Below, piece after piece: positions 1 to 12,557 of a stretch of DNA of 64,000 bases. A program made the position numbers and the translations under genes. The notes under the pieces were generated by a model. The model was not told where the DNA came from. It saw only the letters and a list, made by a program, of their open reading frames with translations, and ran no database searches. Source of the DNA: an uncultured Acidimicrobiaceae bacterium (GTDB taxonomy: Bacteria > Actinomycetota > Acidimicrobiia > Acidimicrobiales > RAAP-2). The DNA is taken from assembly GCA_963732125.1 (NCBI GenBank), contig CAVSXX010000002.1, forward strand, positions 37,985-101,984. The letters are read 5' to 3'. How positions within the stretch are numbered: position 1 is the first letter of the stretch; every line of letters starts with the position of its first letter.

Positions 1-1
1 G

Positions 2-928
2 ACGGCGAGTCTCTTCCCCGACATACTCGCGAGCGACGTCGGGGTGCTCGCGCACGATCGCGCGCGTGCGGTGATCTTTCCCTCCTTTGGCGCCTACGTC
101 GGCGGCGACATCGTGGCGGGCATGCTGGCTTCGGGCATGGACCGAGACTCGCGGCTTCGGCTCTTCCTCGATATCGGCACCAACTGCGAGCTGGTGCTGG
201 GCAACAGCGATCGCCTGCTCGCGACGGCGGCGCCCGCCGGGCCGGCCTTTGAGGGTGCGGCCATTCGCTGCGGCATGCGCGCGGCACCCGGCGCCATCGA
301 AGTCGTGAAGATTACGCCCGACGCCATCGAGCTGGGCGTGATTGGCGACGTGGAACCCGAAGGCCTCTGCGGATCGGGACTGGTCGATGTCGTGGCCGAA
401 CTCGTGGCGCTGAAGCTCATTGACTCGAGCGGGCGCTACGTCACCGATGACGAGGCCGCCTCCCTCGCGCCCGGTGTCGCGCACCGGCTCACCGATCTGT
501 CCGGACAACGAGTCTTCGTCTTGCATTGGAAGGGGGGCGAAGGCGACGTCGAACACTCGATCTTCCTGTCCCAACGCGATGTCCGCGAGCTCCAGTTCGC
601 GAAGGCTGCGATCGCGACGGGTTGGCACCTCCTGCTCGACGAAGCCGGCGTAAAGGAAGAGGATCTCCAGCAGGTCCTGCTCGCCGGATCGTTTGGGAGC
701 TACCTCTCGCCCGCGAGCGCCGTGCGGCTGGGTCTCGTACCAAAGCTGCCGATACTGCGCATCGTCAGTGCCGGCAACGTGGCCGGCGAGGGAGCAAAGA
801 TGGCGCTGCTCAGCCTGAGGGAGCGCTCGGGCGCCATGGCGTTATTGGAGGAGGTGGAATATGTCGAACTCTCCGATCGAAGTGACTTTAACGACGCCTT
901 CGTCGATCAACTCGCCTTCCCGAGCTGA
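2..928 (+). CDS. ASKHA-domain reductive activator of corrinoid proteins (RACo/RamA-like, DUF4445), 5' part outside the window
   Basis: Frame is open from base 2. Motifs LFLDIGTNCEL, AGPAFEG, GLCGSG, SQRDVRELQFAKAAI, LAGSFG and AGNVAGEGA are typical of the RACo C-terminal region. Confidence 0.9.
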   Translation, partial: TASLFPDILASDVGVLAHDRARAVIFPSFGAYVGGDIVAGMLASGMDRDSRLRLFLDIGTNCELVLGNSDRLLATAAPAGPAFEGAAIRCGMRAAPGAIEVVKITPDAIELGVIGDVEPEGLCGSGLVDVVAELVALKLIDSSGRYVTDDEAASLAPGVAHRLTDLSGQRVFVLHWKGGEGDVEHSIFLSQRDVRELQFAKAAIATGWHLLLDEAGVKEEDLQQVLLAGSFGSYLSPASAVRLGLVPKLPILRIVSAGNVAGEGAKMALLSLRERSGAMALLEEVEYVELSDRSDFNDAFVDQLAFPS

Positions 929-941
929 GTCGAGCGCACCG

Positions 942-1574
942 GTGGCGGTCGTCGCCTGCGGCGCACTCGGGCCATCCATTAACGAGATCGTGAACCGCCG
1001 TCGGTGGAACGTCGACCTCCATCAGCTGCCCGCCCTCTTGCATAACCGCCCGAGACTGATTGCCCCGAAAGTCGAGCAGCTCGCGCGCCAGCTCCAGGCG
1101 AGGGGTCAGACCGTCGCTGTCGCCTACGCCGACTGCGGCACGTACGGCGCGCTCGACGTCGTCTGCGAGCGCCTGGGCATCGGCCGACTCCACGGGCAAC
1201 ACTGCTACGACGTCTTCGCAAAGCCCGAGGAGATTCGAGCGCTGCTCAACGACGAACCCGGTACGTACCTGCTCACCGATTTTCTGGTGAAGAGCTTTCG
1301 CCGCACTGTCATCAGCGAGCTCGGCCTCGATCGCTACCCCGAGCTCTGGGGCGACTACTTCGGCAACTACCGACGCGTCGTCTGGCTCGCCCAGCAGCGC
1401 ACCGCAGCATTGGAAGCAGAAGTGCGCTCCATCGTCGAGCGCTTCGGCTTGCCGCTGGTCATCCTTGAGGTCGGCACCCTCTCGTTGGAGATAGAACTCG
1501 ACGCGCTGCTCGCCACCGCCTCGCTGACATCGAACGGGCCCGAGCAACTCGAACGGCGTGACCGTGGCGCGTAA
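942..1574 (+). CDS. DUF1638 family protein (corrinoid-cluster associated)
   Basis: VVACGAL, LPALLHNRP, VAYADCGT, GQHCY, PGTYLLTDFL and YFGNYRRVVWL. GTG at 942 just after the RACo stop is chosen over the overlapping 861 start. Confidence 0.8.
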   Translation: MAVVACGALGPSINEIVNRRRWNVDLHQLPALLHNRPRLIAPKVEQLARQLQARGQTVAVAYADCGTYGALDVVCERLGIGRLHGQHCYDVFAKPEEIRALLNDEPGTYLLTDFLVKSFRRTVISELGLDRYPELWGDYFGNYRRVVWLAQQRTAALEAEVRSIVERFGLPLVILEVGTLSLEIELDALLATASLTSNGPEQLERRDRGA

Positions 1575-2442
1575 CACCCACGTCGCCTCGGCGCTGTTGC
1601 AGCACGCACGCTACGAGATCATCCCGAGCGCCTCGATCGAAGAGAAGGTAGTGGCGTCGGTGCCGCGATCGGTGACCATCACGGTCACGGCGTCGCCCAC
1701 CAAGGGCCTCGACGCCTCGTTGGACCTCACCGAGCGCCTTCGAGCGGAGGGATATCGGGTGGTGCCACACCTCTCCGCGCGACTCGTGGGCGACCGGGCG
1801 CACCTGGACCACATCGTTGCGCGCCTCGTCGGCTGCGGCGTCGACGATGTCTTCGTTCCCGCGGGTGACGCCAATCCTCCGGTCGGGAACTACGACAGCG
1901 CGCTGCCGCTCTTGATGGAGCTCGACGAGCTGGGCCGCCCCTTTCGCGACGTGGGGATCACCGGCTACCCCGAGAGTCATCCAAGCATCTCCGACGACCT
2001 CACGGTGCAGGCGATGTGGGACAAGCGCAAGTACGCGACCTACATCGTGAGCAACCTCTGCTTCAACGCCGCGACCGTTCGCGACTGGATCGGTCGAGTG
2101 CGAAAGCGCGGGGTCGAGCTGCCGATCTACTTCGGTCTCGCGGGTCCGGTCGAGCAGGCGAAGCTCCTGCGCATGGCCACCAAGATCGGCGTAGGCGATT
2201 CGATGCGCGTGCTCGCCAAGCACGGCAACTGGCTCGTGCGCATGGGCACACCTGGCGGGTACGACCCGACACGGCTCCTGCGTCGCGCCGGCTCGACGCT
2301 CAACGACGAGCGGGCCAATGTGAAGGGCCTTCACGTCTTCACCTTCAATCAATTGGCCGAAACCGAAGCGTGGCGCCAGTCACTCCTCGACGCGGAGCCC
2401 GAAGACCAACGTCGCACTCACGAGACGGGTTCGCCGCTGTAG
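1558..2442 (+). CDS. Methylenetetrahydrofolate reductase family protein (MetF-like)
   Basis: YEIIP, TVTASP, VVPHLSAR, VFVPAGDA, GITGYPESHP, IVSNLCFN, LPIYFGLAGP and GLHVFTFNQ. Overlaps the DUF1638 end, suggesting one operon. Confidence 0.85.
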   Translation: MTVARNTHVASALLQHARYEIIPSASIEEKVVASVPRSVTITVTASPTKGLDASLDLTERLRAEGYRVVPHLSARLVGDRAHLDHIVARLVGCGVDDVFVPAGDANPPVGNYDSALPLLMELDELGRPFRDVGITGYPESHPSISDDLTVQAMWDKRKYATYIVSNLCFNAATVRDWIGRVRKRGVELPIYFGLAGPVEQAKLLRMATKIGVGDSMRVLAKHGNWLVRMGTPGGYDPTRLLRRAGSTLNDERANVKGLHVFTFNQLAETEAWRQSLLDAEPEDQRRTHETGSPL

Positions 2443-2472
2443 TTTTACGACATCGGCGAAGGGGGCGGTCAC

Positions 2473-3249
2473 ATGGACAGCAATGACGCAGACATCGTCG
2501 GCACGGTCGAGGATCCCTTGACAGAAGCGCGCCAACTCGCCGAGGGTGCCGCCGCCAAGGGCGTCCACTTACGCCTCCTCGGCGGACTCGCGGTGCGCGT
2601 TCTCTGTCCCGACTTTCCCCCGCGCCTGCGGCGCGATCAGGACATTGACTTCGGATGTCTCTCCAAAGGCCGAAAGGACGTGGTCGCCTACCTCGAATCG
2701 GCCGGCTGTGAGCCCGACCGTCGATTCAACTCTCTGAACGGCGATCGTCAGATGTACTTCAACGCTCCCTCGGGCCGCCCCATCGACGTGATGGTCGATC
2801 AGCTCAACATGTGCCACGTGCTCGACTTCCGTCCGCGCTTTCACGCCATGCCCATCACCCTTGACGTCGCGGACCTCCTGCTCACGAAGCTGCAGATCAT
2901 CGAGATGAATGAGAAGGACGCACGTGATATCACTCATCTGCTCTCCGCGTACCAGATTGTGGAACAAAAGAGCGATCAACCCGGCGTCGACGCCGATCGA
3001 TTCGTGAAAGTGCTCGGCGGCGACTGGGGATGGTGGCGTACCGTGACCGACAATCTGGTGAAACTGCCGAAATTGCTCGACGAGCATCCCCATCTGGTAC
3101 CCCACGGCGCACGGTATAACGCGCGCGCGCACGCCGCGCGCTTGCACGAACTTGCGCACGCGGCACCCAAGTCGATGCAGTGGAAGATGCGCGCGAAGGT
3201 CGGCGATCGCATGCGCTGGTACGAGCTGCCCGAAGAAGTTGATCACTAA
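2473..3249 (+). CDS. Uncharacterised nucleotidyltransferase-fold protein (DNA polymerase beta superfamily-like)
   Basis: RBS GAAGGGGG. hhGGhA motif (LLGGLAV), DxD (QDIDF), third acidic residue (IDV), LLLTKL...EKDARD, and a W/R-rich C-terminus (KSMQWKMRAKVGDRMRWYELPEE). Confidence 0.7.
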   Translation: MDSNDADIVGTVEDPLTEARQLAEGAAAKGVHLRLLGGLAVRVLCPDFPPRLRRDQDIDFGCLSKGRKDVVAYLESAGCEPDRRFNSLNGDRQMYFNAPSGRPIDVMVDQLNMCHVLDFRPRFHAMPITLDVADLLLTKLQIIEMNEKDARDITHLLSAYQIVEQKSDQPGVDADRFVKVLGGDWGWWRTVTDNLVKLPKLLDEHPHLVPHGARYNARAHAARLHELAHAAPKSMQWKMRAKVGDRMRWYELPEEVDH

Positions 3250-3376
3250 CTGTTGGTTGACGCGTTTCATCGCCTGTGATAGGCATTGCTGGCGCTCCGA
3301 GATCGGCGGGGGGAAGCGCTACCAGGTAGTTCATCTCCTGCCCTGAACGTGGTGTTGCGGAGGTGGTGTCGAGACT

Positions 3377-4315
3377 ATGCGAGTCTTCTTTGCGACAGAC
3401 ATTCACGGGTCCGAAGTGTGCTGGCGCAAGTTCCTCAACTCCGCTGCGTTCTACAAGGCCGACCTGGTCATCTTGGGCGGGGATCTTACGGGCAAGGTCA
3501 TGGTGCCGATCGTCGTGAGCAACGGGCACTTCGAGCTCACCTTCGCCGGGACGGCGCTCCGCCTCGACACCGAAGAAGAGGTCCGTAACATCGAAGCCCA
3601 GATCAGGAATCGCGGCTTCTATCCGACCAGAATCTCGGCCGAGGAGCTCTCGGCGCTCAACGAAGAGGACGGATCGATCGATCGGCGCTTTACGACCGAG
3701 ATGGTCCACACCCTCGATCGCTGGCTCGACATGGCCGATTCGAAGCTCGATGCCGGAAAGATCCCCTGCTTCTTGAATGGCGGGAACGACGACACCTTCG
3801 ACATCGATCAGGTCATCGAAGACGCTCCGCACGTCAACTTCACCGAAGGCAAGGTCATGGAGCTCGACGGTTTCTATCTCGCCTCGATGGGCTACACCAA
3901 TCCAACACCGTGGAACACGTTTCGAGAAGAGTCCGAAGTGGACCTGGCAGCGCGCATCGAGCATCTGGTCGGCAAGATTCCCGACATGAGTCGAGCGATC
4001 TTCAACTTTCACGCGCCGCCCTACAACTCGGGCCTCGACGAGGCGCCGGCGCTCGACGAGACGCTGCGCCCGAAGCACGGCGGAGCGGTGATGGAGCCGG
4101 TCGGGTCAAAGGCCGTCGCGGCCTCGATCACCAAGCACCAGCCGATGCTCTCGGTGCACGGCCATATCCATGAGAGTCGCGGCATCAAAAAGATGGGTCG
4201 CACGCTCGCGTTGAATCCTGGCAGCGTCTACACCGACGGAGTCTTGCAAGGCGCCGTCATCGATCTCGATGCAAAAAAGAAGAAGGTGAAACGGTACATC
4301 CTCGTCAACGGATGA
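3377..4315 (+). CDS. Calcineurin-like metallophosphoesterase (Icc-related, COG2129-like)
   Basis: All five motifs are visible: TDIHG, GGDLTG, GGNDD, FHAPP and HGHIHE. RBS GGAGGT upstream. Confidence 0.9.
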   Translation: MRVFFATDIHGSEVCWRKFLNSAAFYKADLVILGGDLTGKVMVPIVVSNGHFELTFAGTALRLDTEEEVRNIEAQIRNRGFYPTRISAEELSALNEEDGSIDRRFTTEMVHTLDRWLDMADSKLDAGKIPCFLNGGNDDTFDIDQVIEDAPHVNFTEGKVMELDGFYLASMGYTNPTPWNTFREESEVDLAARIEHLVGKIPDMSRAIFNFHAPPYNSGLDEAPALDETLRPKHGGAVMEPVGSKAVAASITKHQPMLSVHGHIHESRGIKKMGRTLALNPGSVYTDGVLQGAVIDLDAKKKKVKRYILVNG

Positions 4316-4345
4316 ACTGACCAACGCATGGCCCAAGGAGGGGAA

Positions 4346-5989
4346 ATGGCCATAAAGGAAGAATCGGAAGGCATGGGGGGAAAGCCGGGCGGGTCGGAAG
4401 CGCCCACGCTGTTTCTGCGCAAGGCGACCGGTCTGGTGCGAGGGTGGTCGGTGCGCGACGCCATCATCTACGCGTGCCTGTCTACCAACATCATCACGCT
4501 CGGCATCTACGAGTTCTCATTCAACTCGTTCATACCGAAGGGCCAGCTGCTCACTGCGGTGCTGATCTCTGGGGTGTGGGTGTCGTTCCTCGTCATCGCC
4601 TACACCGGGCTGATCGTCACCATCCCGCGCGCGGGCGGCGACTACGTCTGGCAGAGTCGAATACTCGGCGGCCCCGTCGGCTTCGTCTTCGCGACGACCG
4701 GGTGGTGGTTCATCCTGTGGCTGTGGGCGCCGATCTACGGCACCGTGCTCAACGTCGAGCTCTTCCAACCGGTCCTGTACACCATCGGCGCGAAGGGGCT
4801 CGCGAGCTACTTCGGCACCCACAACGGCACGATGACCATTTGTATCATCACCATCGCGCTCGCGGGCATCTTTGTCTCGCTCGGCATGAGTGGCTACGCG
4901 AAGCTCCAGAAGTGGTGCTTCGCCGGGGGCATGGTCGGCTTTCTCGTTATCGTCGTGCTGCTACTCGCCAACTCTCACGGGAGCTTCGTCAGCTCGGTCA
5001 ACCTCGAGGCGCACAAGTACTTCGGGATCTCCAACGCGTATGGGTCAACCACCGCAGCAGCCGCGAAGATCAGCTACGCCGCGCCCGCCTTCGGGCTCAA
5101 CGCCTTTGGGGCGAGCATGTTGCTCGTGCCCATGTTGATGTTCTATCTCTTGTGGCCCAACTGGGGCTCGACGCTCTATGGTGAGGTGCGCGGCGCGAGC
5201 GACTTCAAGCGCGTCTTCACCGGGATGTTCGCGGGGCTCTGGCTCACGGTCCTACTCTCGGTGATCTTCCTGCTCTTGATGCTGAAGACGTTCGGCTGGG
5301 GGTTCTACAACGACGCGAACGCGGTGTTCTGGGCCGGCAAGGGCACGATACCCATCTGGCCGTATCCAATGATGCTCGCCGGGTGGCTCGTGCATAACGC
5401 TGCCTTCCAGGTGATCTTGCTCCTGGTGATGAGCCTCTGGTTCTTCGGATGGGTCGGAACGCTGTTCCTCTCCTCGACGCGCGTGATCTTCGCCGCGGCC
5501 TTTGACCGGGTCCTCCCCGACGCCGCCGCGTCGGTCTCAGAGAAGCGCAAGGTCCCAATGGCCTCGTTGTTCTTGATGCTGTTACCGGCAGTAGCCCTGA
5601 GCGCCGTCTATTCGTATTGGGTGAAGTTCGCCACGTATACGTTGGACGCGACGCTCGTGATCGCGGTCACCTATCTGGTGAGCGCGTTCGCGGTGGTGAT
5701 CCTGCCCTGGCGCAAACCAGAACTGTGGGCGTCCTCCGCCGCGAGCAAGTTCAAGGCCTTTGGCATTCCCATCGTGCCCGTGGCGGGACTCGCCACGATG
5801 GGCCTCGTGATTTACAACCTCATCGAGTGGATGTCCAACGGCGCCTACGGCGTGAACAATCGCGGTTCGCTCGTCTTCATGGCGATCCTGTATGTGCTGG
5901 CGATCGCGCTGTACGTCGTGGCCCGCATGGTCAGAAAGCGTCAGGGCATCGATCTCGGACTCATCAACAAGGAGATCCCCGTCGAATAG
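4346..5989 (+). CDS. APC superfamily amino acid/amine permease
   Basis: About 12 hydrophobic segments. FLRKATGLVR N-terminus, IPRAGGDYVWQSR, YGEVRG and RVIFAAAFDRVLP. ATG 4346 follows the AAGGAGG RBS. Confidence 0.9.
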   Translation: MAIKEESEGMGGKPGGSEAPTLFLRKATGLVRGWSVRDAIIYACLSTNIITLGIYEFSFNSFIPKGQLLTAVLISGVWVSFLVIAYTGLIVTIPRAGGDYVWQSRILGGPVGFVFATTGWWFILWLWAPIYGTVLNVELFQPVLYTIGAKGLASYFGTHNGTMTICIITIALAGIFVSLGMSGYAKLQKWCFAGGMVGFLVIVVLLLANSHGSFVSSVNLEAHKYFGISNAYGSTTAAAAKISYAAPAFGLNAFGASMLLVPMLMFYLLWPNWGSTLYGEVRGASDFKRVFTGMFAGLWLTVLLSVIFLLLMLKTFGWGFYNDANAVFWAGKGTIPIWPYPMMLAGWLVHNAAFQVILLLVMSLWFFGWVGTLFLSSTRVIFAAAFDRVLPDAAASVSEKRKVPMASLFLMLLPAVALSAVYSYWVKFATYTLDATLVIAVTYLVSAFAVVILPWRKPELWASSAASKFKAFGIPIVPVAGLATMGLVIYNLIEWMSNGAYGVNNRGSLVFMAILYVLAIALYVVARMVRKRQGIDLGLINKEIPVE

Positions 5990-6057
5990 AGGACGAACCT
6001 ACGTCGCCACGCTGACCCGATACGTTGGTCGTGGTTCATTGCCAAAGGAGATTCGTC

Positions 6058-7494
6058 GTGGATGACGTCGTCAGCGTCGAGAATTTCGTGGATGGTGTCG
6101 CCAAGGCTGCGTCGTCGAACGACGTGATCGACGTGGTTGATCCCTCGACAGGTGAGCGCATCGCTGTCGTCACGGCGTCCAGCGCCGAGGACGTTGACGG
6201 GGCCGTGCACGCGGCGGCGCGCGCCTTCCTCGCCTGGAGCGCGTTGACGCCCGGCGAGCGGTCGACGTACCTACACCGACTCACGAGCCTCTTCGAGCAG
6301 GACCTCGACCGCTTCGCCGATCTCGAAGTGCGAGACGCCGGCAAGCCCACGACCGCCGCGCACGACGTGGAGTTCCCCGCTATCGCTGACGCCCTTCGCC
6401 ACTTCGCGGGTGCCGCGCGAACGACGACGGGCCAAGGCGGGGGTGACTACGTGAAGGGACATAGTTTCTATCTGCGCCGCGAGCCGCTCGGGGTGGTCGG
6501 TGCCGTCACCCCGTGGAACTATCCGCTCTGGCAAGCCGTGTGGAAGATCGCGCCCGCGCTTGCCGCGGGGAACACGATCGTTGTCAAACCCTCGGAGAAC
6601 ACGCCGCTCACCGCGGCCGCATTCGCCGAGCTGGCGTCCGAGGTCCTGCCACCGGGCGTGCTGAACGTGATCCACGGTCGCGGACCTGTCGCTGGTGAGG
6701 CCCTCGTGAGCCACCCGCTCGTCGCGCTCGCGACGTTCACGGGATCGACTCGAGCGGGGCGTCGCATCGCCGAGCTCGCGGCCAAGACTCCGAAGCCAGT
6801 GATTCTCGAGCTCGGCGGGAACGCGCCGGTCGTCGTCTTCGCTGATGTCGACCTTGCCCACGCGCTACCGATCATCGCGGCGAGCGGGCTCTATAACGCG
6901 GGCCAGGATTGCACGGCGGCAACTCGCATCCTCGTCGAAGAGGGTCTCTTCGACGAGTTCGTCGACGGCCTCGTCGAGCAGTTTCGCGGCTACTCGCCGC
7001 AGCCAGCCAATGACCCGACGACAACTCTCGGGCCCCTTATTTCTGAGGTGCAGCGCGAACGGGTGCGCGGACTCGTCGACCAAGCCCGGTCGAGCGGCCG
7101 CGTCGTGGTGGGCGGCGCGTCACCGGACGTCTCAGGATTCTTCTACGAGCCGACGATCGTCACAGGACTCGATCAACATCACCCGCTGGTTCAACAAGAG
7201 TGTTTCGGACCCGTGGTCACGGTGCAGCGGTTCGCCAACGACGACGAGGCGCTGACCATGGCGAACGACGTCGAGTACGGCCTGGCCGGTTCCGTGTGGA
7301 CTCGCGATGTCGGACGTGCGACCCGCTTTGCCAACGCGCTGCACTTTGGCACCGTGTGGATCAACGATCACCTGATCCTCGCGCCCGAGATGCCTGTCGG
7401 CGGGTTTCGCGCCTCTGGCTACGGCAAAGAGGGCGGCGTCGCGGGCATCGAGGAGTTCACGAGGGTCAAGGAAGTCATCATCAACACGCACTGA
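6058..7494 (+). CDS. NAD-dependent aldehyde dehydrogenase (aminobutyraldehyde/betaine aldehyde dehydrogenase-like)
   Basis: PWNYPL, KPSENTP, FTGST, LELGGNAP, NAGQDCTA (catalytic Cys) and ECFGPV. AAGGAG RBS before GTG 6058. Confidence 0.9.
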   Translation: MDDVVSVENFVDGVAKAASSNDVIDVVDPSTGERIAVVTASSAEDVDGAVHAAARAFLAWSALTPGERSTYLHRLTSLFEQDLDRFADLEVRDAGKPTTAAHDVEFPAIADALRHFAGAARTTTGQGGGDYVKGHSFYLRREPLGVVGAVTPWNYPLWQAVWKIAPALAAGNTIVVKPSENTPLTAAAFAELASEVLPPGVLNVIHGRGPVAGEALVSHPLVALATFTGSTRAGRRIAELAAKTPKPVILELGGNAPVVVFADVDLAHALPIIAASGLYNAGQDCTAATRILVEEGLFDEFVDGLVEQFRGYSPQPANDPTTTLGPLISEVQRERVRGLVDQARSSGRVVVGGASPDVSGFFYEPTIVTGLDQHHPLVQQECFGPVVTVQRFANDDEALTMANDVEYGLAGSVWTRDVGRATRFANALHFGTVWINDHLILAPEMPVGGFRASGYGKEGGVAGIEEFTRVKEVIINTH

Positions 7495-7500
7495 GTCGCA

Positions 7501-7513
7501 GCGGGCTTCCCGC
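7501..7513 (+). terminator. Short GC hairpin after the ALDH stop, possible terminator
   Basis: GCGGG-CTT-CCCGC, 6 nt after TGA; no U tract. Confidence 0.35.
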
Positions 7514-7608
7514 CGCGTCGAGCTCGAACACTGTGTTTCGTTTCGCGTCAATGGCGTCGACGTTGTTCGACTCATTTCGGGGGAAGATCGCACTCATAAA
7601 CTGAGTCG

Positions 7609-8901
7609 ATGAGCGACGAAGAGTCTTCCCACGCCAATTCCTCAACGCCAACGAAGCACGTGGTTGTGATCGGTGCGGGCATCGTCGGACTTTCCTGCGC
7701 CTGGTCCCTCCAGGAATATGGAGTAAGCGTGCAGGTCGTCGATCGCCGTCGTGAGGGCGCGGGAGCGTCGGCGGGCAATGCCGGCTACGTGAGCCCCGGC
7801 TACTGCGTCCCGCTGCCAGAACCAGGCCTGCTCCGCTACGGGCTGCGCGCCGTACTCGACCCGCGTTCTCCGGTGTCGCTCCCTCTGCGCGGCGACGCCG
7901 AACGAGCGAAGTTCCTCGTTGGACTTCTTGCCCACTGCACCAGTTCGTCCTGGCAACGCGCCATGTCGGCGTACCGACCGCTCAACGAAGGGGCAATCGC
8001 CGCCTACGACGCGCAACACGAGGGCGGTGTCGCCGCGGAGTCCATCGCCACGGACACCATCTCGGGATTCCGCGAGGCGAGCGAGGCAAAGGGAGAACTC
8101 GAGGAGTTCAACGGCATCGTCGGGGCGGGCCAGTCCTTGGACATAGAACTCCTTACGGCGGCGCAGCTGCACGCGCTCGAACCGCACCTCTCGAGTGACG
8201 TCAACTTCGGCATACTGCTCCGTGGCCAGCGCTATGTGACGCCACTCCCCTACGTGGAGGCACTGGCCAACAGCGTGAGGGCTCGCGGCGGCGAGATCGT
8301 CGAAGGCGCGCCCGTCGAAAGCGTCGAGCGCAAAGGACACGTGGTCGTCGCTCGCTCGGACCTTCGGGAGTTCTCGGGTGACGCGGTGATCATCGCAAAC
8401 GGCGCTTGGCTCAGCCGGCTCGCGGCGCCTCACGGTGTGACGGTCCCTGTCTATGCGGGCCGCGGCTATAGCTTCACGCTGCCCATTGACGCACCGCTCT
8501 CACATCCCGTTCACTTTCCCGGAAGGCGACTGGCGCTGACGCCCGCGGGTGATCGTGTGCGCGTTGTCGGCGTCATGGAGTTCGCTGATCCCGACGCTCC
8601 CTTGGTCGAAGCACGCATTCGGTCGATGGTGAAGACGCTCAAGCCGCTCATCACCGGCGTGGATTGGGATAGGCGAAGTGACGACTGGGTCGGTCCTCGA
8701 CCGCTTACGACCGACGGCATGCCGGTCATCGGCCAGACCGCGACGCCAGGGGTCTACGTCGCAGGCGGTCACGGGATGTGGGGAATCACGCTGGGGCCAG
8801 TCACCGGCAAGCTGCTCGCCGAAGCAATCGCGACCGGTAACACGCCAGGTGACTTGCTGCCGTTCAGCCCGCGTCGCTTTACGTCGTGGCGCCTGCGCTG
8901 A
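7609..8901 (+). CDS. FAD-dependent D-amino acid dehydrogenase family oxidoreductase (DadA-like)
   Basis: VIGAGIVG, GASAGNAG, GRGYS, WVGPRPLTTDGMPVIG and GGHGMWGITLGP. TAAACT-6nt-ATG suggests a leaderless start. Confidence 0.88.
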   Translation: MSDEESSHANSSTPTKHVVVIGAGIVGLSCAWSLQEYGVSVQVVDRRREGAGASAGNAGYVSPGYCVPLPEPGLLRYGLRAVLDPRSPVSLPLRGDAERAKFLVGLLAHCTSSSWQRAMSAYRPLNEGAIAAYDAQHEGGVAAESIATDTISGFREASEAKGELEEFNGIVGAGQSLDIELLTAAQLHALEPHLSSDVNFGILLRGQRYVTPLPYVEALANSVRARGGEIVEGAPVESVERKGHVVVARSDLREFSGDAVIIANGAWLSRLAAPHGVTVPVYAGRGYSFTLPIDAPLSHPVHFPGRRLALTPAGDRVRVVGVMEFADPDAPLVEARIRSMVKTLKPLITGVDWDRRSDDWVGPRPLTTDGMPVIGQTATPGVYVAGGHGMWGITLGPVTGKLLAEAIATGNTPGDLLPFSPRRFTSWRLR

Positions 8902-8941
8902 GCCTGCTGCCACCCTCAGGCATCTCGGTACGATGAGCGGC

Positions 8942-9529
8942 ATGAGTGCGCCTTTGCCACCAGTCGCCGCGATACTGCTCACGGGTGGATCGAGCCGACG
9001 CATGGAGCGCGACAAGGCGAGCCTGGCCATCGATGGCACAACGCTTGCCAAGCGAACAGCTCACCTGCTGTTAGCCGTCGTCGATACCGCCGTTGAGGTC
9101 GGCCCCGGTGTGTCGGGGTTACCCTCGACCATCGAAGACCCATCGGGAGAAGGTCCCCTGGTCGCCATCGTGGCAGGTCGTCGAGCCCTTCGCGAGCGCG
9201 GTCACGCAGGCGCCGCCCTCGTCGTCGCGTGTGATCTGCCTCTCCTCAGTGAGCGTCTGCTCACCTTGCTTCGCGACTGGGACGCACCGGGCTCGGTTGT
9301 ACCGACGGTCGGTGGACTCCCCCAACCACTGTGTGCAAAGTGGGGAGCGAACGACCTCGACCACGCCGCCGCGTTGGTGCGCGTGGGCGTCCGGTCACTC
9401 CGACACCTCGTGAGCGAACCAGACGTCGTCATGCTTGATGAGTTGCAGTGGCGCGACACCATAGATGTTGTCGAGTTCTCCGACATCGACAGTCCTGACG
9501 ACGCGCGCCGACTCGGACTCGACCTGTAA
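8942..9529 (+). CDS. mobA: Molybdenum cofactor guanylyltransferase
   Basis: LLTGGSSRRMERDK, GPLVAI, VACDLP and DIDSPDD. TACGAT-7nt-ATG at 8942. Confidence 0.8.
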   Translation: MSAPLPPVAAILLTGGSSRRMERDKASLAIDGTTLAKRTAHLLLAVVDTAVEVGPGVSGLPSTIEDPSGEGPLVAIVAGRRALRERGHAGAALVVACDLPLLSERLLTLLRDWDAPGSVVPTVGGLPQPLCAKWGANDLDHAAALVRVGVRSLRHLVSEPDVVMLDELQWRDTIDVVEFSDIDSPDDARRLGLDL

Positions 9530-9545
9530 GCGACCTTCGGCCGAG

Positions 9546-9773
9546 CTAGTTGCCGGCGCTCTCGGCGAGGCCCTCTGCGAGTGCGCGTGCGTCGTTCGCC
9601 TCGAGGCCCGCACGCGCGGCCAGCCAGCACGCGACCGGCGCGGCCGTGCGCTCCGAAGAGTGCGCGGCAAGACCTGCGAGCGCGAGGATCTGGTTGACTT
9701 CCTCCTCGCTCGGCGCGTCGATACCCAGGGCGTCGCTGTAGGCAGCGAGCCACTCCATCGCAGACATGGTCAT
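9546..9773 (-). CDS. Small DUF6457-like protein (domain often fused to actinobacterial MobA)
   Basis: WLAAYSDALGI...ILALAGLAAHSSERTAAPVACWLAARAG pattern. TAGGAT-7nt-ATG at 9773. Confidence 0.7.
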   Translation of the reverse strand: MTMSAMEWLAAYSDALGIDAPSEEEVNQILALAGLAAHSSERTAAPVACWLAARAGLEANDARALAEGLAESAGN

Positions 9774-9880
9774 GGCGCTCATCCTACGGCGGGTCCGCAC
9801 GCATGAGCCCCGATAACCCACGTCACTATGCTCCTCTTTGCTCGACGGTTCGAGCTCGCGGAGCTAGGAATGTGAGGACC

Positions 9881-10708
9881 ATGAATCGTATTGCGCCACA
9901 GCGAGACACGCTTCGGGTGACCGTCGGAGAACCGGCCACGCATCGACGCGACACGCTGGCGGGCGAAGAGCCCTTGGAGCTCCGCGTGGACGGCACGTCG
10001 TTGGCGGTCACGATGAGAACGCCCGGCGCGGACTTCGATCTCGCAGCGGGCTTCCTCGTGAGCGAAGGAGTCGTGAGTAAGAAAGACGAGCTCGTGGCGA
10101 TGCGCTACTGCGCCGGGAAGGGCAACGACGGCGTCAACCAGTTCAACGTGCTCGACCTGTCGCTCGCACCCAGCGTCGCGCCGCCCGACGAAAGTGTGGC
10201 GCGCGCATTCTTCACCACAAGCTCATGCGGGCTCTGTGGGAAAGCTTCCATCGACGCCGTGAGAACGCGATCGCGATTCGACGTCCACGACGATCCACTG
10301 AAGGTCTCGTCCGAACTGCTTGCCTCCCTGCCGGCAAAGCTTCGTGCAGCGCAGCAGGTGTTCGAGAAGACGGGCGGGCTTCACGCGGCCGGACTGTTCG
10401 ACGCCAACGGCGAGCTGCTGACGTTGCGCGAAGACGTCGGTCGACACAACGCCGTCGACAAGGTCGTCGGCTGGGCGCTGCGTGAGGGCAAGCTGCCGCT
10501 GCGCGAAACGATCCTTCTCGTCTCGGGCCGGGCGTCATTCGAGCTCGTCCAAAAAGCTGCCATGGCGGGCCTGCCGATGCTTTGTGCCGTCTCGGCCCCG
10601 TCGTCGCTTGCCGTCGACCTCGCTGAGGAAAGTGGCATCACCCTCGTCGGATTCCTTCGCGATCCCTCGATGGTGGTGTACGCCGCGGCCGAGCGCGTCG
10701 CTGATTGA
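9881..10708 (+). CDS. fdhD: Formate dehydrogenase accessory sulfurtransferase FdhD
   Basis: EEPLELR, TMRTPG.DFDLAAGFL, SSCGLCGK, TGGLHAAG, REDVGRHNAVDK and SGRASFELVQKA. GAGGA RBS before ATG 9881. Confidence 0.95.
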   Translation: MNRIAPQRDTLRVTVGEPATHRRDTLAGEEPLELRVDGTSLAVTMRTPGADFDLAAGFLVSEGVVSKKDELVAMRYCAGKGNDGVNQFNVLDLSLAPSVAPPDESVARAFFTTSSCGLCGKASIDAVRTRSRFDVHDDPLKVSSELLASLPAKLRAAQQVFEKTGGLHAAGLFDANGELLTLREDVGRHNAVDKVVGWALREGKLPLRETILLVSGRASFELVQKAAMAGLPMLCAVSAPSSLAVDLAEESGITLVGFLRDPSMVVYAAAERVAD

Positions 10709-10805
10709 GGCTTGACCAAGCCTGCGACGCGGTAGAAAATCCCGCTCTCGACGTGAGCAGCGCTTGCTGATGCTCATTGTCGTGGAATGCAGATGGTGGT
10801 CGGCG

Positions 10806-11750
10806 TCACGACCACGAACGCGGCAGCACCGCTTCGATGGCCTCGGCTATAAGTGAGTAGCCCGCGTCGTTGGGGTGATCGTCAGGTCCAAACGGTGTGG
10901 TGTAGCAGAACCAGGTGAGTTCACAGGCCTGTTGGACATTGGTCGGAATCGTTCCCACATTGGGCACGGTGACAACCGCGTCGTTGTTCGTCTGAAACAG
11001 CGCGGGCACGTTGGCGACGGGTACGCCTGCGCTCGCGTAAATGCCATCGAGCAACCCGTCGAGTCGATCCATGCCGACAAGCGTGGCCGTGGCGTCCGCA
11101 GCGCCCACCGAAGGGTTGACGTAGTAGCCGAGGTAGGGATCGGCGTAGTCGACGCCGATGAAGTGCACGTTGGGTCCCGCCGATGACTTGAGGTCCTTCA
11201 ACACGATGGGAAGGTCGCGTTGGATCGCCACGATCGCCTGGCTCAGGCAGGTCTGGTTGACCGGGTCGGCCTCCATGCACGGTCGAACATTATTGAAGCC
11301 GAGGTCGACCGTGACCAGCACCTGATCCGCTCGATGCGCTTGGAGATACGCCTCGGCCTTGGTGAGCTGAGTGTCGGGCGCCTGGTAACAGGCGTCGGAC
11401 TTCGTCGTGTCGAGCAGCGACTGGATGGTGTCGCCCGGACAGCCAATCTGTTCGAGGGTGAGGGCGACACCCTTCAGCGCCTCTCGCAGCACGAGATCGT
11501 TCGCGTAACCGGTGTCAGTGCGCGCACCGTTGTGATGGGGGATGCCTGTCGGTTGAAACCCGAGCGATTCAGAAGCGCCCATGTCGAGATAGAAGGCACG
11601 CACTTTGATGGGCGTTGACGTCGTCGCCGAGGCTGCACCCGCATTGGCGGCTCCGTTGGCGTGACCAACGAGGTACGCTCCCGCTGCGACGGCGAGTACC
11701 GCGACGATGACGAGGACCAGCTTCCATCGCCGTACGCTCCTCGTCTTCAT
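10806..11750 (-). CDS. Secreted or membrane-anchored SGNH/GDSL-like hydrolase
   Basis: Basic then hydrophobic N-terminus. Blocks YLDMGASESLG, GCPGDT, TVDLGFNNV and DDHPNDAGY. Confidence 0.75.
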   Translation of the reverse strand: MKTRSVRRWKLVLVIVAVLAVAAGAYLVGHANGAANAGAASATTSTPIKVRAFYLDMGASESLGFQPTGIPHHNGARTDTGYANDLVLREALKGVALTLEQIGCPGDTIQSLLDTTKSDACYQAPDTQLTKAEAYLQAHRADQVLVTVDLGFNNVRPCMEADPVNQTCLSQAIVAIQRDLPIVLKDLKSSAGPNVHFIGVDYADPYLGYYVNPSVGAADATATLVGMDRLDGLLDGIYASAGVPVANVPALFQTNNDAVVTVPNVGTIPTNVQQACELTWFCYTTPFGPDDHPNDAGYSLIAEAIEAVLPRSWS

Positions 11751-11780
11751 CGAGTGGTCGTCAACTTGCTTCGCGCCAGG

Positions 11781-12557
11781 CTAGAAGTCGTCTCGAGCAT
11801 TCGCCTCAAAGTCGAGCAGCGTCTCGCTGCGCAAGCCGAGACGAAGGGTCTCGAGTGGGACGATGTCCGAAACCGAGATGTTGCCAAGGTTCGCGTTCGG
11901 TCCGACGCGCTGGATGAAGTAGGCCTGGAGTTCGGTCGAGGGCGCTTCGAAGAGTAAGCGATCGTGTTCGATCTTCGAATCAAGAATCTCTTCCACGAGG
12001 CCATAGCGCAACTCACCGTTCGAGCGGCACATGCCCCCCTGTCCACCCTCGCGCGTTTCGAGGGTCACGAGGATCGCCCCCGCGTCGATATCGGCCTGGA
12101 TGTAGCTGATCCACTTCACCGGAGCCATGACATCGGATCGGGCCTGATCCTTCGATCCCACCTCCGAGATCACCTGGAAGTCGTCGGACAGACGCTTGAC
12201 GTAGTCCGCTTTCTCGTCGTTCGTGATGTCGATCGTGCCGTTCGACACCTCGACAAAGCGACATCGATAGCCGTCGCACAGGAGCCGGAACTCGTCGAAG
12301 CGGTCCTGGACGACGTACTTCTCAAAGAGCGTGCCGCCGAGGTAGAAGTCGATGCCGGCTTCTCGAAGCACGTCCAACTTGGCTTGGAAGTCCTTCGTCA
12401 CGACCGACGTGCCCCACCCGAACTTGACGAAGTCGATGAGCTCGCCGAAGCTTCCGATGAGATCAACGAAGTGGCTGAACGGCTCCCCTCGATCGATCAT
12501 CATGGTGATACCGCGCGAACGCGGCTTCGAGCTCCGCTGGGGAAGAAGCAATGACAT
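11781..12557 (-). CDS. comA: Phosphosulfolactate synthase (ComA family)
   Basis: RGITMMIDRG, DFVKFGWGT, GGTLFE, VEVSNGTI, VISEVGSK, LETREGG, FEAP and GPNANLGNI...LETLRLGLRSET. Confidence 0.88.
   Translation of the reverse strand: MSLLLPQRSSKPRSRGITMMIDRGEPFSHFVDLIGSFGELIDFVKFGWGTSVVTKDFQAKLDVLREAGIDFYLGGTLFEKYVVQDRFDEFRLLCDGYRCRFVEVSNGTIDITNDEKADYVKRLSDDFQVISEVGSKDQARSDVMAPVKWISYIQADIDAGAILVTLETREGGQGGMCRSNGELRYGLVEEILDSKIEHDRLLFEAPSTELQAYFIQRVGPNANLGNISVSDIVPLETLRLGLRSETLLDFEANARDDF

Follow-up and report, generated by a model that had tools for sequence, protein, structure and literature searches.

Minimal nucleotidyltransferases (NTases) of the Pol-beta type can nucleotidylylate proteins, as GlnE, GlnD, and the MNT antitoxins do. 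In GlnD and GlnE, the NTase is fused to a domain that removes the modification (an HD domain or a second NTase), and the targets are PII and glutamine synthetase. The actinobacterial amtB-glnK-glnD operon pairs a transporter with an NTase-based switch. Described here is a trio of genes encoding an NTase (NT), a metallophosphoesterase (MPE), and a permease of the APC superfamily, located at positions 2473-5989 of a 64,000-nucleotide (nt) stretch of DNA (the window) from an uncultured Acidimicrobiaceae bacterium. Like amtB-glnK-glnD, the trio joins a transporter to a Pol-beta-fold NTase, and that operon, with its reversible nucleotidylylation over nitrogen-compound uptake, would be the best functional analogy if the trio is a switch. 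The differences are plain: the trio is without PII, its putative eraser is a separate MPE rather than an HD domain or second NTase, and its transporter is an APC permease rather than an Amt channel. No PII gene appears in the open reading frame (ORF) and gene maps around the trio, and Pfam and NCBIfam scans give no sequence relationship of NT to GlnD. NT is a single-domain protein of 258 amino acids (aa), and only the logic is analogous to that of GlnD and GlnE.

What, then, is this trio? No system described in Pfam, NCBIfam, PADLOC, or the searchable literature corresponds to it, in keeping with an earlier note on this DNA whose author knew of no characterized pathway with these three genes. 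All three proteins fall in known superfamilies, but the family of each is uncharacterized and annotated only as "hypothetical" or with a generic name. The literature searched contained no paper on the trio or on the function of PF14907 or Metallophos_3, the former being the one Pfam family that NT matches and the latter the family of the best fold matches to MPE. The trio is not a GlnD/GlnE, AbiEii/MenT, CD-NTase, ANT, or Lic system because defining features of each are missing. It is a real, deeply conserved, uncharacterized unit and, by analogy, would best compare with an importer for catabolism that has its own enzyme pair for post-translational control. It is possible, and we propose it tentatively, that NT nucleotidylylates the permease and MPE de-nucleotidylylates it, giving reversible control of uptake.

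Conservation of the trio

A scan across GTDB returned 591 relatives of NT, and the loci of the best 80 of these were examined. All 80 are in Actinomycetota metagenome-assembled genomes (MAGs) from soil or peat, in the Acidimicrobiales and Streptosporangiaceae (including Trebonia), and tblastn and profile searches find NT, MPE, and APC collinear in almost all of them. To these were added 80 more distant loci from a metagenome scan with a 6-sequence subgroup alignment, about 35 to 37% identical to the window NT, which replaced a broad 23-sequence alignment too divergent for this use. Here, MPE and APC adjoin NT wherever the contig extends far enough. When the count is restricted to loci whose sequence extends 3.5 kb or more to each side of NT, MPE and APC lie beside NT in 67 of 68 genome loci and in all 7 distant metagenome loci (74 of 75 together), an association far beyond chance that persists at NT identities of about 36 to 41%. 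The earlier note had made its proposal depend on NT keeping the phosphoesterase and the permease as neighbors; in Actinomycetota MAGs and in distant contigs, it does.

The trio is also kept when the order of its genes is not. It reads APC-MPE-NT in two loci (L152 and L157), is divergent in another (L145), and has NT directly beside APC in two more (L155 and L158). A contig of 45% GC (L170) carries two complete trios in tandem at positions 3111-11682, each permease having its own NT and MPE. Could the three genes nevertheless be independent in function, neighbors with no mechanistic link? Four crenarchaeal loci and a few metagenome contigs do have NT with neither MPE nor APC, as independence would allow. 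Against this stand the near-complete co-occurrence in well-flanked loci, an association that outlasts rearrangement and change of context, and the duplication of the whole trio in L170, and we find mere synteny barely credible.

Several loci show variations on the arrangement. In the sole exception among the 68 genome loci (L037, positions 9977-10919), NT still adjoins BetA, but only some 45 codons of MPE survive and the permease has been lost. ORFs of 442 to 547 aa with no Pfam match are found between NT and MPE in three distant loci (L091, 6667-8163; L098, 8777-10105; L075, 12615-14258). Directly upstream of NT in L091, L093, L097, and L098 is a large regulator gene, belonging to one sequence cluster; the L098 version, 1383 aa long, matches an adenylate-cyclase catalytic domain and AAA_16. 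In the L170 contig, the tandem trios are accompanied by enolase-superfamily genes, a luciferase-like gene, and a formamidase-type gene.

Folds and catalytic residues of the three proteins

NT (2473-3249, + strand) is identified as a Pol-beta-type NTase of an uncharacterized family by its ORF, a weak Pfam match, a structural model, a fold search, and a profile search. Its sole Pfam family match is PF14907 (NTP_transf_5), at 23.3 bits over the NTase core alone (residues 17-109 of 258; profile positions 58-144 of 249), which falls below the gathering threshold of 31.2; by the Pfam rule NT is not a member, and PF14907 is a related family only. Among 45 NT-family members, 28 match it at E<0.01. The members of PF14907 are uncharacterized nucleotidyltransferases, and no function is assigned to that family. 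No NCBIfam model matches NT. The NT family is large: its members form about 4,200 clusters when grouped at 90% identity, and 2,338 when grouped at 50% (E<=0.001).

An AlphaFold2 (AF2) model of NT, built with 19 homologues (pLDDT 84, pTM 0.83), predicts an N-terminal alpha/beta NTase core followed by a C-terminal helical domain. In a Foldseek search of the PDB, the top matches to this model are Pol-beta-type NTases only, namely, MenT1, JHP933 of H. pylori (4ok0), ANT(2'')-Ia, and LnuA, with probabilities of about 1.0 yet modest TM scores of about 0.4 at most. Terminal uridylyltransferases (TUTases), CCA-adding enzymes, and CD-NTases follow lower down. The Pol-beta fold suspected from the sequence is thus the fold that the model predicts. 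The earlier note had also staked its proposal on such a fold, and neither of its two conditions refutes the idea. The motifs first quoted for the fold are all present: LLGGLAV at residues 34-40, D57-I-D59, I104-D105-V106, and T138-K139-L140 with E147-K148-D149. The glycines of the hG[GS] motif (L35-G37-G38) and the aspartates of the DxD/E motif (D57-I-D59) are invariant or nearly so in sets of 45 and 125 members, and the third carboxylate, D105, is invariant and lies in a predicted strand (residues 103-108). Across the 45 members, which are 30 to 91% identical, the catalytic residues G37, D57, D59, and D105 do not vary. The same is true of a second set, in the helical domain, made up of H115, K139, Q141, D149, D152, W185, K233, W237, R240, G244, W249, and Y250. 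The C-terminal tail, WYELPEE (WYE-x-PEE in the family), is conserved, and the last nine residues are disordered in the AF2 model. Because the model matches Pol-beta folds and both catalytic and helical-domain residues are invariant, NT is an active-looking NTase in a family of its own. Two representatives at 50% identity extend the domain: P0316 continues after NT with about 320 residues that, on reading the sequence, resemble two phosphoribosyltransferase repeats, and P0277 has an N-terminal extension annotated at its source as a Roadblock/LC7/MglB-family regulator.

Which NTases are closest? Single-sequence searches of the PDB with NT, MPE, or APC gave nothing useful, while profiles and the fold search did work. 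A profile of the 45 NT-family members reaches only two groups of PDB sequences, those of ANT(2'')-Ia (E=0.004) and LnuA (E=0.13; PDB entries 4xje, 4wqk, and 4fo1 for the pair), the hGG and DxD motifs of the core being aligned. The similarity covers about 70 N-terminal residues, with TM scores of 0.31 to 0.36. Unlike these enzymes, NT has a further helical domain, roughly 100 aa long and conserved (K233, W237, R240, W249, and Y250), and its context is catabolic rather than one of resistance. ANT(2'')-Ia and LnuA adenylylate hydroxyls of cationic amine antibiotics. Choline, too, is a cationic alcohol, and one might imagine a form of group translocation in which NT nucleotidylylates an incoming alcohol or amine (choline to choline carrying a nucleoside monophosphate [NMP]), making uptake irreversible until MPE releases the compound. 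Such trapping would suit the kinship of the NT core with ANT(2'')-Ia and LnuA, the nearest relatives that sequence comparison detects. It would also cost one nucleoside triphosphate (NTP) per molecule, the substrates implied by other contexts (betaines and guanidino compounds) are without a hydroxyl, and we know of no precedent for the scheme. We regard it as very unlikely.

A second comparison is with the MenT/AbiEii and MNT NTases. MenT1 (8an4) is the top fold match of NT (E=1e-4), and archaeal members of the NT family are sometimes named "AbiEii toxin family." The TM score is only 0.40, however, and NT lies in catabolic operons, with an MTHFR-like gene and MPE for neighbors. NT has no adjacent antitoxin gene (AbiEi or HEPN), no PADLOC match, and no PF08843 match. 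A defense or toxin-antitoxin role was rejected on these grounds: PADLOC returns nothing for NT or APC, no antitoxin gene is present, and MPE gives only a weak match to the candidate defense family PDC-S10 (E=1e-9, 36 bits), which was judged to be generic metallophosphoesterase similarity. Nor does NT belong with the CD-NTases (cGAS/DncV-like), its fold matches to CdnG being weak and PADLOC being silent.

MPE (3377-4315, + strand) encodes 312 aa and is assigned to the dinuclear metallophosphoesterases of the TT1561/aq_1956 (Metallophos_3) type from its ORF, sub-threshold Pfam matches, an AF2 model, and Foldseek. It had been read as an intact calcineurin-like phosphoesterase, and the full set of metal-ligand motifs is there: D8-I-H10, G35-D36, G136-N137-D138-D139, H212, and G262-H263-I-H265, all invariant in 18 of 18 homologues. 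Motif III is GNDD, in which Asp replaces the His of GNH[DE], and a cap region is inserted at about residues 40-125. The Pfam scores fall just short of their thresholds (Metallophos_2, 26.4 versus 27; Metallophos, 20.7 versus 21.5; Metallophos_3 is also sub-threshold), and no NCBIfam cut-off is reached by either MPE or the permease. The AF2 model (pLDDT 76) matches the thermophile proteins aq_1956 (2yvt; E=3e-10) and TT1561 (1uf3) best and then YmdB, Mre11, MJ0936, YfcE, and GpdQ. With the five motifs and the fold, MPE belongs to the calcineurin-like metallophosphoesterase superfamily. TT1561, aq_1956, YfcE, and MJ0936 are matched by fold (E=3e-10 to 1e-7) and have the same metal-ligand set, but TT1561 and aq_1956 are shorter (225 to 257 aa), functionally uncharacterized, and 13 to 16% identical to MPE, which has the cap insert in addition. 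In the search for MPE relatives, 7,931 of 8,000 scored candidates pass E<=0.001.

The permease (4346-5989, + strand, in an ORF that opens at 4328) is 547 aa long and represents a divergent subfamily, as judged by Pfam, a profile search of the PDB, and hydropathy. Its match to PF13520 (AA_permease_2) is above threshold (41.1 bits versus 27), and hydropathy gives 12 hydrophobic segments, bearing out the 12-transmembrane APC permease that had been called. A profile search of the PDB finds LAT2, Asc-1, xCT, and GkApcT (best E=3e-12). The protein is a divergent APC-fold transporter. Its extreme C terminus, E-[IL]-P-x-E directly before the stop codon, recurs in 97 of 100 homologues, among both the closer permeases (type A, at least 47% identical) and the distant ones (type B), even at about 25% identity; this ending is not a generic APC feature.

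An NTase together with a phosphodiesterase-type enzyme raises another thought. NT might make a linear or cyclic nucleotide messenger, MPE degrade it, and the messenger gate the permease, an arrangement that would resemble the control of osmolyte transporters by c-di-AMP. This would explain why such a pair follows the permease whatever the pathway, and several of the contexts concern compatible solutes. Enzymes of the MPE fold include cyclic-nucleotide phosphodiesterases, YmdB is among the MPE fold matches, and the CD-NTase CdnG is among the weaker fold matches of NT. The CdnG matches, however, have low probability (0.25 to 0.41) and a TM score of about 0.23, NT has no PADLOC (CBASS) match, and the Pfam scan finds no recognizable nucleotide-binding domain (CBS, RCK, or USP) in the permease. 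Moreover, were the signal diffusible, a separate NT and MPE for each permease of a duplicated trio would not be expected. A nucleotide messenger is therefore improbable.

Catabolic contexts and proposed control of uptake

In soil and peat, choline and glycine betaine are among the main osmolytes and serve as major sources of C1 units and nitrogen. When Actinomycetota turn them over, they feed fluxes of methyl groups and others related to methane. In the lineage of the window, the trio belongs to the catabolism of choline, glycine betaine, and dimethylglycine; the assignment follows from its neighbors, which are BetA, aldehyde dehydrogenase (ALDH), an MttB system, dimethylglycine dehydrogenase (DMGDH), and ETF. 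Immediately upstream, positions 1-2442 (+ strand) hold, by Pfam and NCBIfam, the corrinoid reductive activase RACo (44-928, cut at its 5' end), DUF1638 (861-1574), and an MTHFR-like gene (1558-2442). DUF1638 overlaps the end of RACo by 68 bp, the MTHFR-like gene overlaps DUF1638 by 17 bp, and the gaps to the trio are at most 30 bp. Judged from gene content, this is probably the tail of an MttB-type quaternary-amine:corrinoid:tetrahydrofolate (THF) methyltransferase system. Three close relatives (L001 to L003, 90 to 93% NT identity) supply the part that would lie off the left edge of the window: a DMGDH-like protein (DAO-FAO_M-GCV_T), an MttB-family methyltransferase, a corrinoid protein, and a pterin methyltransferase. 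The four are found in relatives L001 to L012, in most of which an ALDH gene comes directly after APC. The window has that gene as well, at 6025-7494 (+ strand), 35 to 70 bp past the permease; by Pfam and NCBIfam, it resembles aminobutyraldehyde and betaine-aldehyde dehydrogenases (Pfam Aldedh, 528 bits; NCBIfam PRK13473, 596 with a cut-off of 615; BADH, 439). Downstream of the trio, the window contains no BetA, DMGDH, MttB, or ETF. A choline and glycine-betaine catabolic cluster is thus made up of RACo, DUF1638, the MTHFR-like gene, and ALDH in the window itself, with BetA, MttB, DMGDH, and ETF contributed by relatives.

Other Acidimicrobiales have the array BetA-ALDH-NT-MPE-APC-DMGDH-ETFbeta-ETFalpha, all on one strand (for example, L017). 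In Streptosporangiaceae, an IclR gene is followed by NT-MPE-APC-DMGDH-ETFbeta-ETFalpha, with ALDH and BetA nearby. The GMC enzyme of relatives passes the BetA equivalog cut-off (819 to 847 bits versus 732). Of the 80 genome loci, 47 have GMC, 44 a DMGDH-like gene, and at least 34 an ALDH. Distant loci of type A add OpuAC binding proteins, an OpuA-type ATPase, formate-THF ligase, GntR, and a betaine-reductase-like protein. The surroundings are therefore much like those of the bet (BetT-BetA-BetB-BetI) and MtgB-type systems, given the BetA equivalog, ALDH, MttB-family protein, corrinoid protein, RACo, DMGDH, and ETF. The difference lies in the trio: its transporter is a divergent APC permease, not a BCCT or ABC transporter, and neither known system has an NTase or a metallophosphoesterase.

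What could NT and MPE contribute to such a pathway? Two ideas were dropped. Filling the step from betaine to dimethylglycine does not suit their chemistry, and the MttB system is adjacent in the lineage; handling of the FAD or ETF cofactor fails since the trio also occurs without DMGDH or ETF. A third idea, the main rival of the switch, is that the permease imports an ester (phosphocholine, glycerophosphocholine, CDP-choline, or choline-O-sulfate), from which MPE frees the amine for BetA, ALDH, and MttB, with NT handling a nucleotide-linked intermediate or side product. A step releasing free choline would fit the placement of BetA and ALDH directly upstream of NT-MPE-APC on one strand (L017, for example). 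Within the trio, MPE and APC are the most closely coupled, lying 12 to 30 bp apart in the window, and in one locus, L135, they are fused in frame. The fold relatives of MPE include the phosphodiesterases MJ0936, YfcE, and GpdQ, and YfcE-type enzymes cleave p-nitrophenyl-phosphorylcholine. A glycerol kinase gene lies within 10 kb in 12 loci. Other points weigh against this idea. The glycerol kinase is on the other strand, past unrelated LigD-like genes, as read from the sequences of clusters 15 and 19, and the L135 fusion is a single metagenome contig. NT is given no necessary role. Furthermore, NT and MPE at about 40% identity accompany permeases in agmatinase-type, OTCase/amidohydrolase, and enolase-superfamily operons, where no shared phosphoester is evident. 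Processing of an imported ester seems rather unlikely to us. As for the fusion, the 846-aa ORF at L135:3307-5847, which has MPE (profile positions 1-304) in frame with the permease, might reflect a real fusion, a deletion, or faulty assembly.

The operons just mentioned belong to loci of type B, in which NT and MPE are about 36 to 45% identical to the window proteins and the permease is 24 to 31% identical. One of them (L152) reads LacI and then, on one strand, an agmatinase-family ureohydrolase, CN-hydrolase, APC, MPE, and NT. Elsewhere, the neighbors are an XDH-like enzyme, OTCase, three amidohydrolases, and carbamate kinase (L167 and L168); enolase-superfamily enzymes and short-chain dehydrogenases/reductases (L145 and L170); AFOR and DeoC-type aldolases (L166, 43% GC); or DMGDH, ETF, and an amidohydrolase (L140). 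The trio is possibly also present in some low-GC lineages. The common denominator of these contexts is the import of small nitrogenous compounds and no particular chemistry. Since the same trio joins chemically unrelated operons, NT and MPE appear to follow the permease and not the pathway. The earlier note had proposed either a reversible switch on the permease or its pathway or a two-step processing of an imported phospho-amine; this interpretation is supported in part, but the choline/betaine island and the portability of the trio had been overlooked.

Because NT and MPE follow the permease rather than the chemistry of its substrate, they are most likely not steps of the betaine or choline pathway and would act on the permease or on each other. 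How might the proposed switch operate? The APC permease would take up a nitrogen compound that is either cationic or zwitterionic. Because the trio is inserted in an island of betaine demethylation and choline oxidation, the likeliest candidate in this genome would be a quaternary amine such as choline or glycine betaine. NT would move NMP from NTP onto a hydroxyl group, and MPE would hydrolyze the resulting phosphodiester, the pair forming a reversible on/off switch for uptake. Adding and removing NMP is chemistry to which an NTase and a phosphodiesterase-type hydrolase are suited as a pair. The E-I/L-P-x-E end of the permease would be the docking site. In favor of such a switch are the conservation of the trio, its changing contexts, the tandem trios of L170, the invariant catalytic residues, and the C-terminal motif of the permease.

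There are also points that weigh against it. The cytoplasmic tails of the permease show no conserved Ser, Thr, or Tyr unique to the subfamily. To our knowledge, no protein de-nucleotidylylase of the metallophosphoesterase fold has been described. The nearest relatives of NT, by sequence profile and predicted fold, include ANT(2'') and LnuA, and a small-molecule acceptor would fit them equally well. The divergence of the permease is in itself ordinary, as membrane proteins generally diverge faster. Lastly, no MPE or APC gene occurs within 5 to 6 kb of NT in four crenarchaeal loci (one in Caldivirga maquilingensis, two in Saccharolobus solfataricus, and one in Metallosphaera). Since NT stands alone there, its activity does not intrinsically need MPE or APC.

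NT-family genes are numerous in Archaea, occurring in Caldivirga, Vulcanisaeta, Sulfolobales, Nitrososphaerota, and an Asgard MAG, and a Chloroflexota member exists (P0260). The earlier note had suggested similar neighborhoods in archaea and Chloroflexi. For archaea this is half right: NT itself is plentiful in Crenarchaeota, but its partners are missing from the four loci inspected. The trio is a bacterial elaboration. In one Saccharolobus locus with no MPE or APC nearby (L163, 6001-9138), the neighbors are a glutamine-synthetase-like ligase and an Amidohydro_2 enzyme, and in a locus with archaeal-type neighbors (L169, 4390-6753), NT comes directly after an SSF-family transporter with DUF3311, again without MPE. 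These neighbors hint that archaeal NT, too, is tied to the handling of amines or solutes.

If NT and MPE do regulate the permease, they would represent a new post-translational mode of control for secondary transporters and a new metallophosphoesterase activity. The full form of this claim, in which a subfamily of APC permeases is switched by covalent nucleotidylylation, MPE is the first de-nucleotidylylase of its fold, and a system widespread in soil and peat Actinomycetota thereby controls the entry of choline, betaines, and other nitrogen compounds into catabolism, is doubtful. Should NT and MPE instead process an imported ester, a missing entry step of choline catabolism would be defined. 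Either way, three "unknown" families gain a testable functional frame and a defined first substrate class, and the trio stands as a large, clean unknown in environmentally important bacteria.

Gene starts, spacers, and adjacent genes

The three co-oriented ORFs of the earlier note all lie where it placed them, on the + strand, and the Shine-Dalgarno-like purine runs ahead of the three starts agree with its view that each gene has its own ribosome-binding site. For the permease, ATG 4346 is the more likely start, rather than 4328, with AAGGAGGGG directly before that ATG. The choice sets the gap between MPE and APC at 30 bp (4346) or 12 bp (4328), and the 30 bp first reported is exact for ATG 4346 when counted from the MPE stop codon.

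The spacer between NT and MPE is longer, 127 bp. When the window and nine Acidimicrobiia relatives are aligned, TTG and CTGTG.TA are invariant within it and the flanks vary. The conserved part corresponds to a promoter- or operator-like element at 3257-3286 (+ strand), composed of TTGACG, 17 nt, and TAGGCAT, which could be an internal promoter or operator ahead of MPE and APC. A simple sigma-70 promoter scan does not pick it up. That scan gave 1 promoter-like site versus a shuffled mean of 1.5, and 8 terminator-like sites were counted versus a shuffled mean of 5.0 (standard deviation, 2.3); none of either kind falls in an intergenic gap of the region. Since such counts equal or approach what shuffling gives, the idea that sigma-70 promoters or intrinsic terminators separate the genes of the trio was set aside. 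An Rfam E-value scan of positions 1-12000 for riboswitches and other known RNAs gave one match, at chance level and inside the ALDH gene. Among sequencing runs with matches, the sequence occurs only in DNA metagenome runs (soil and peat).

Beyond the ALDH gene, the window continues with a D-amino-acid-dehydrogenase-like FAD oxidoreductase (7609-8901). From reading of their translations, an ORF within 8678-9529 looks MobA-like and one at 9803-10708 looks FdhD-like.

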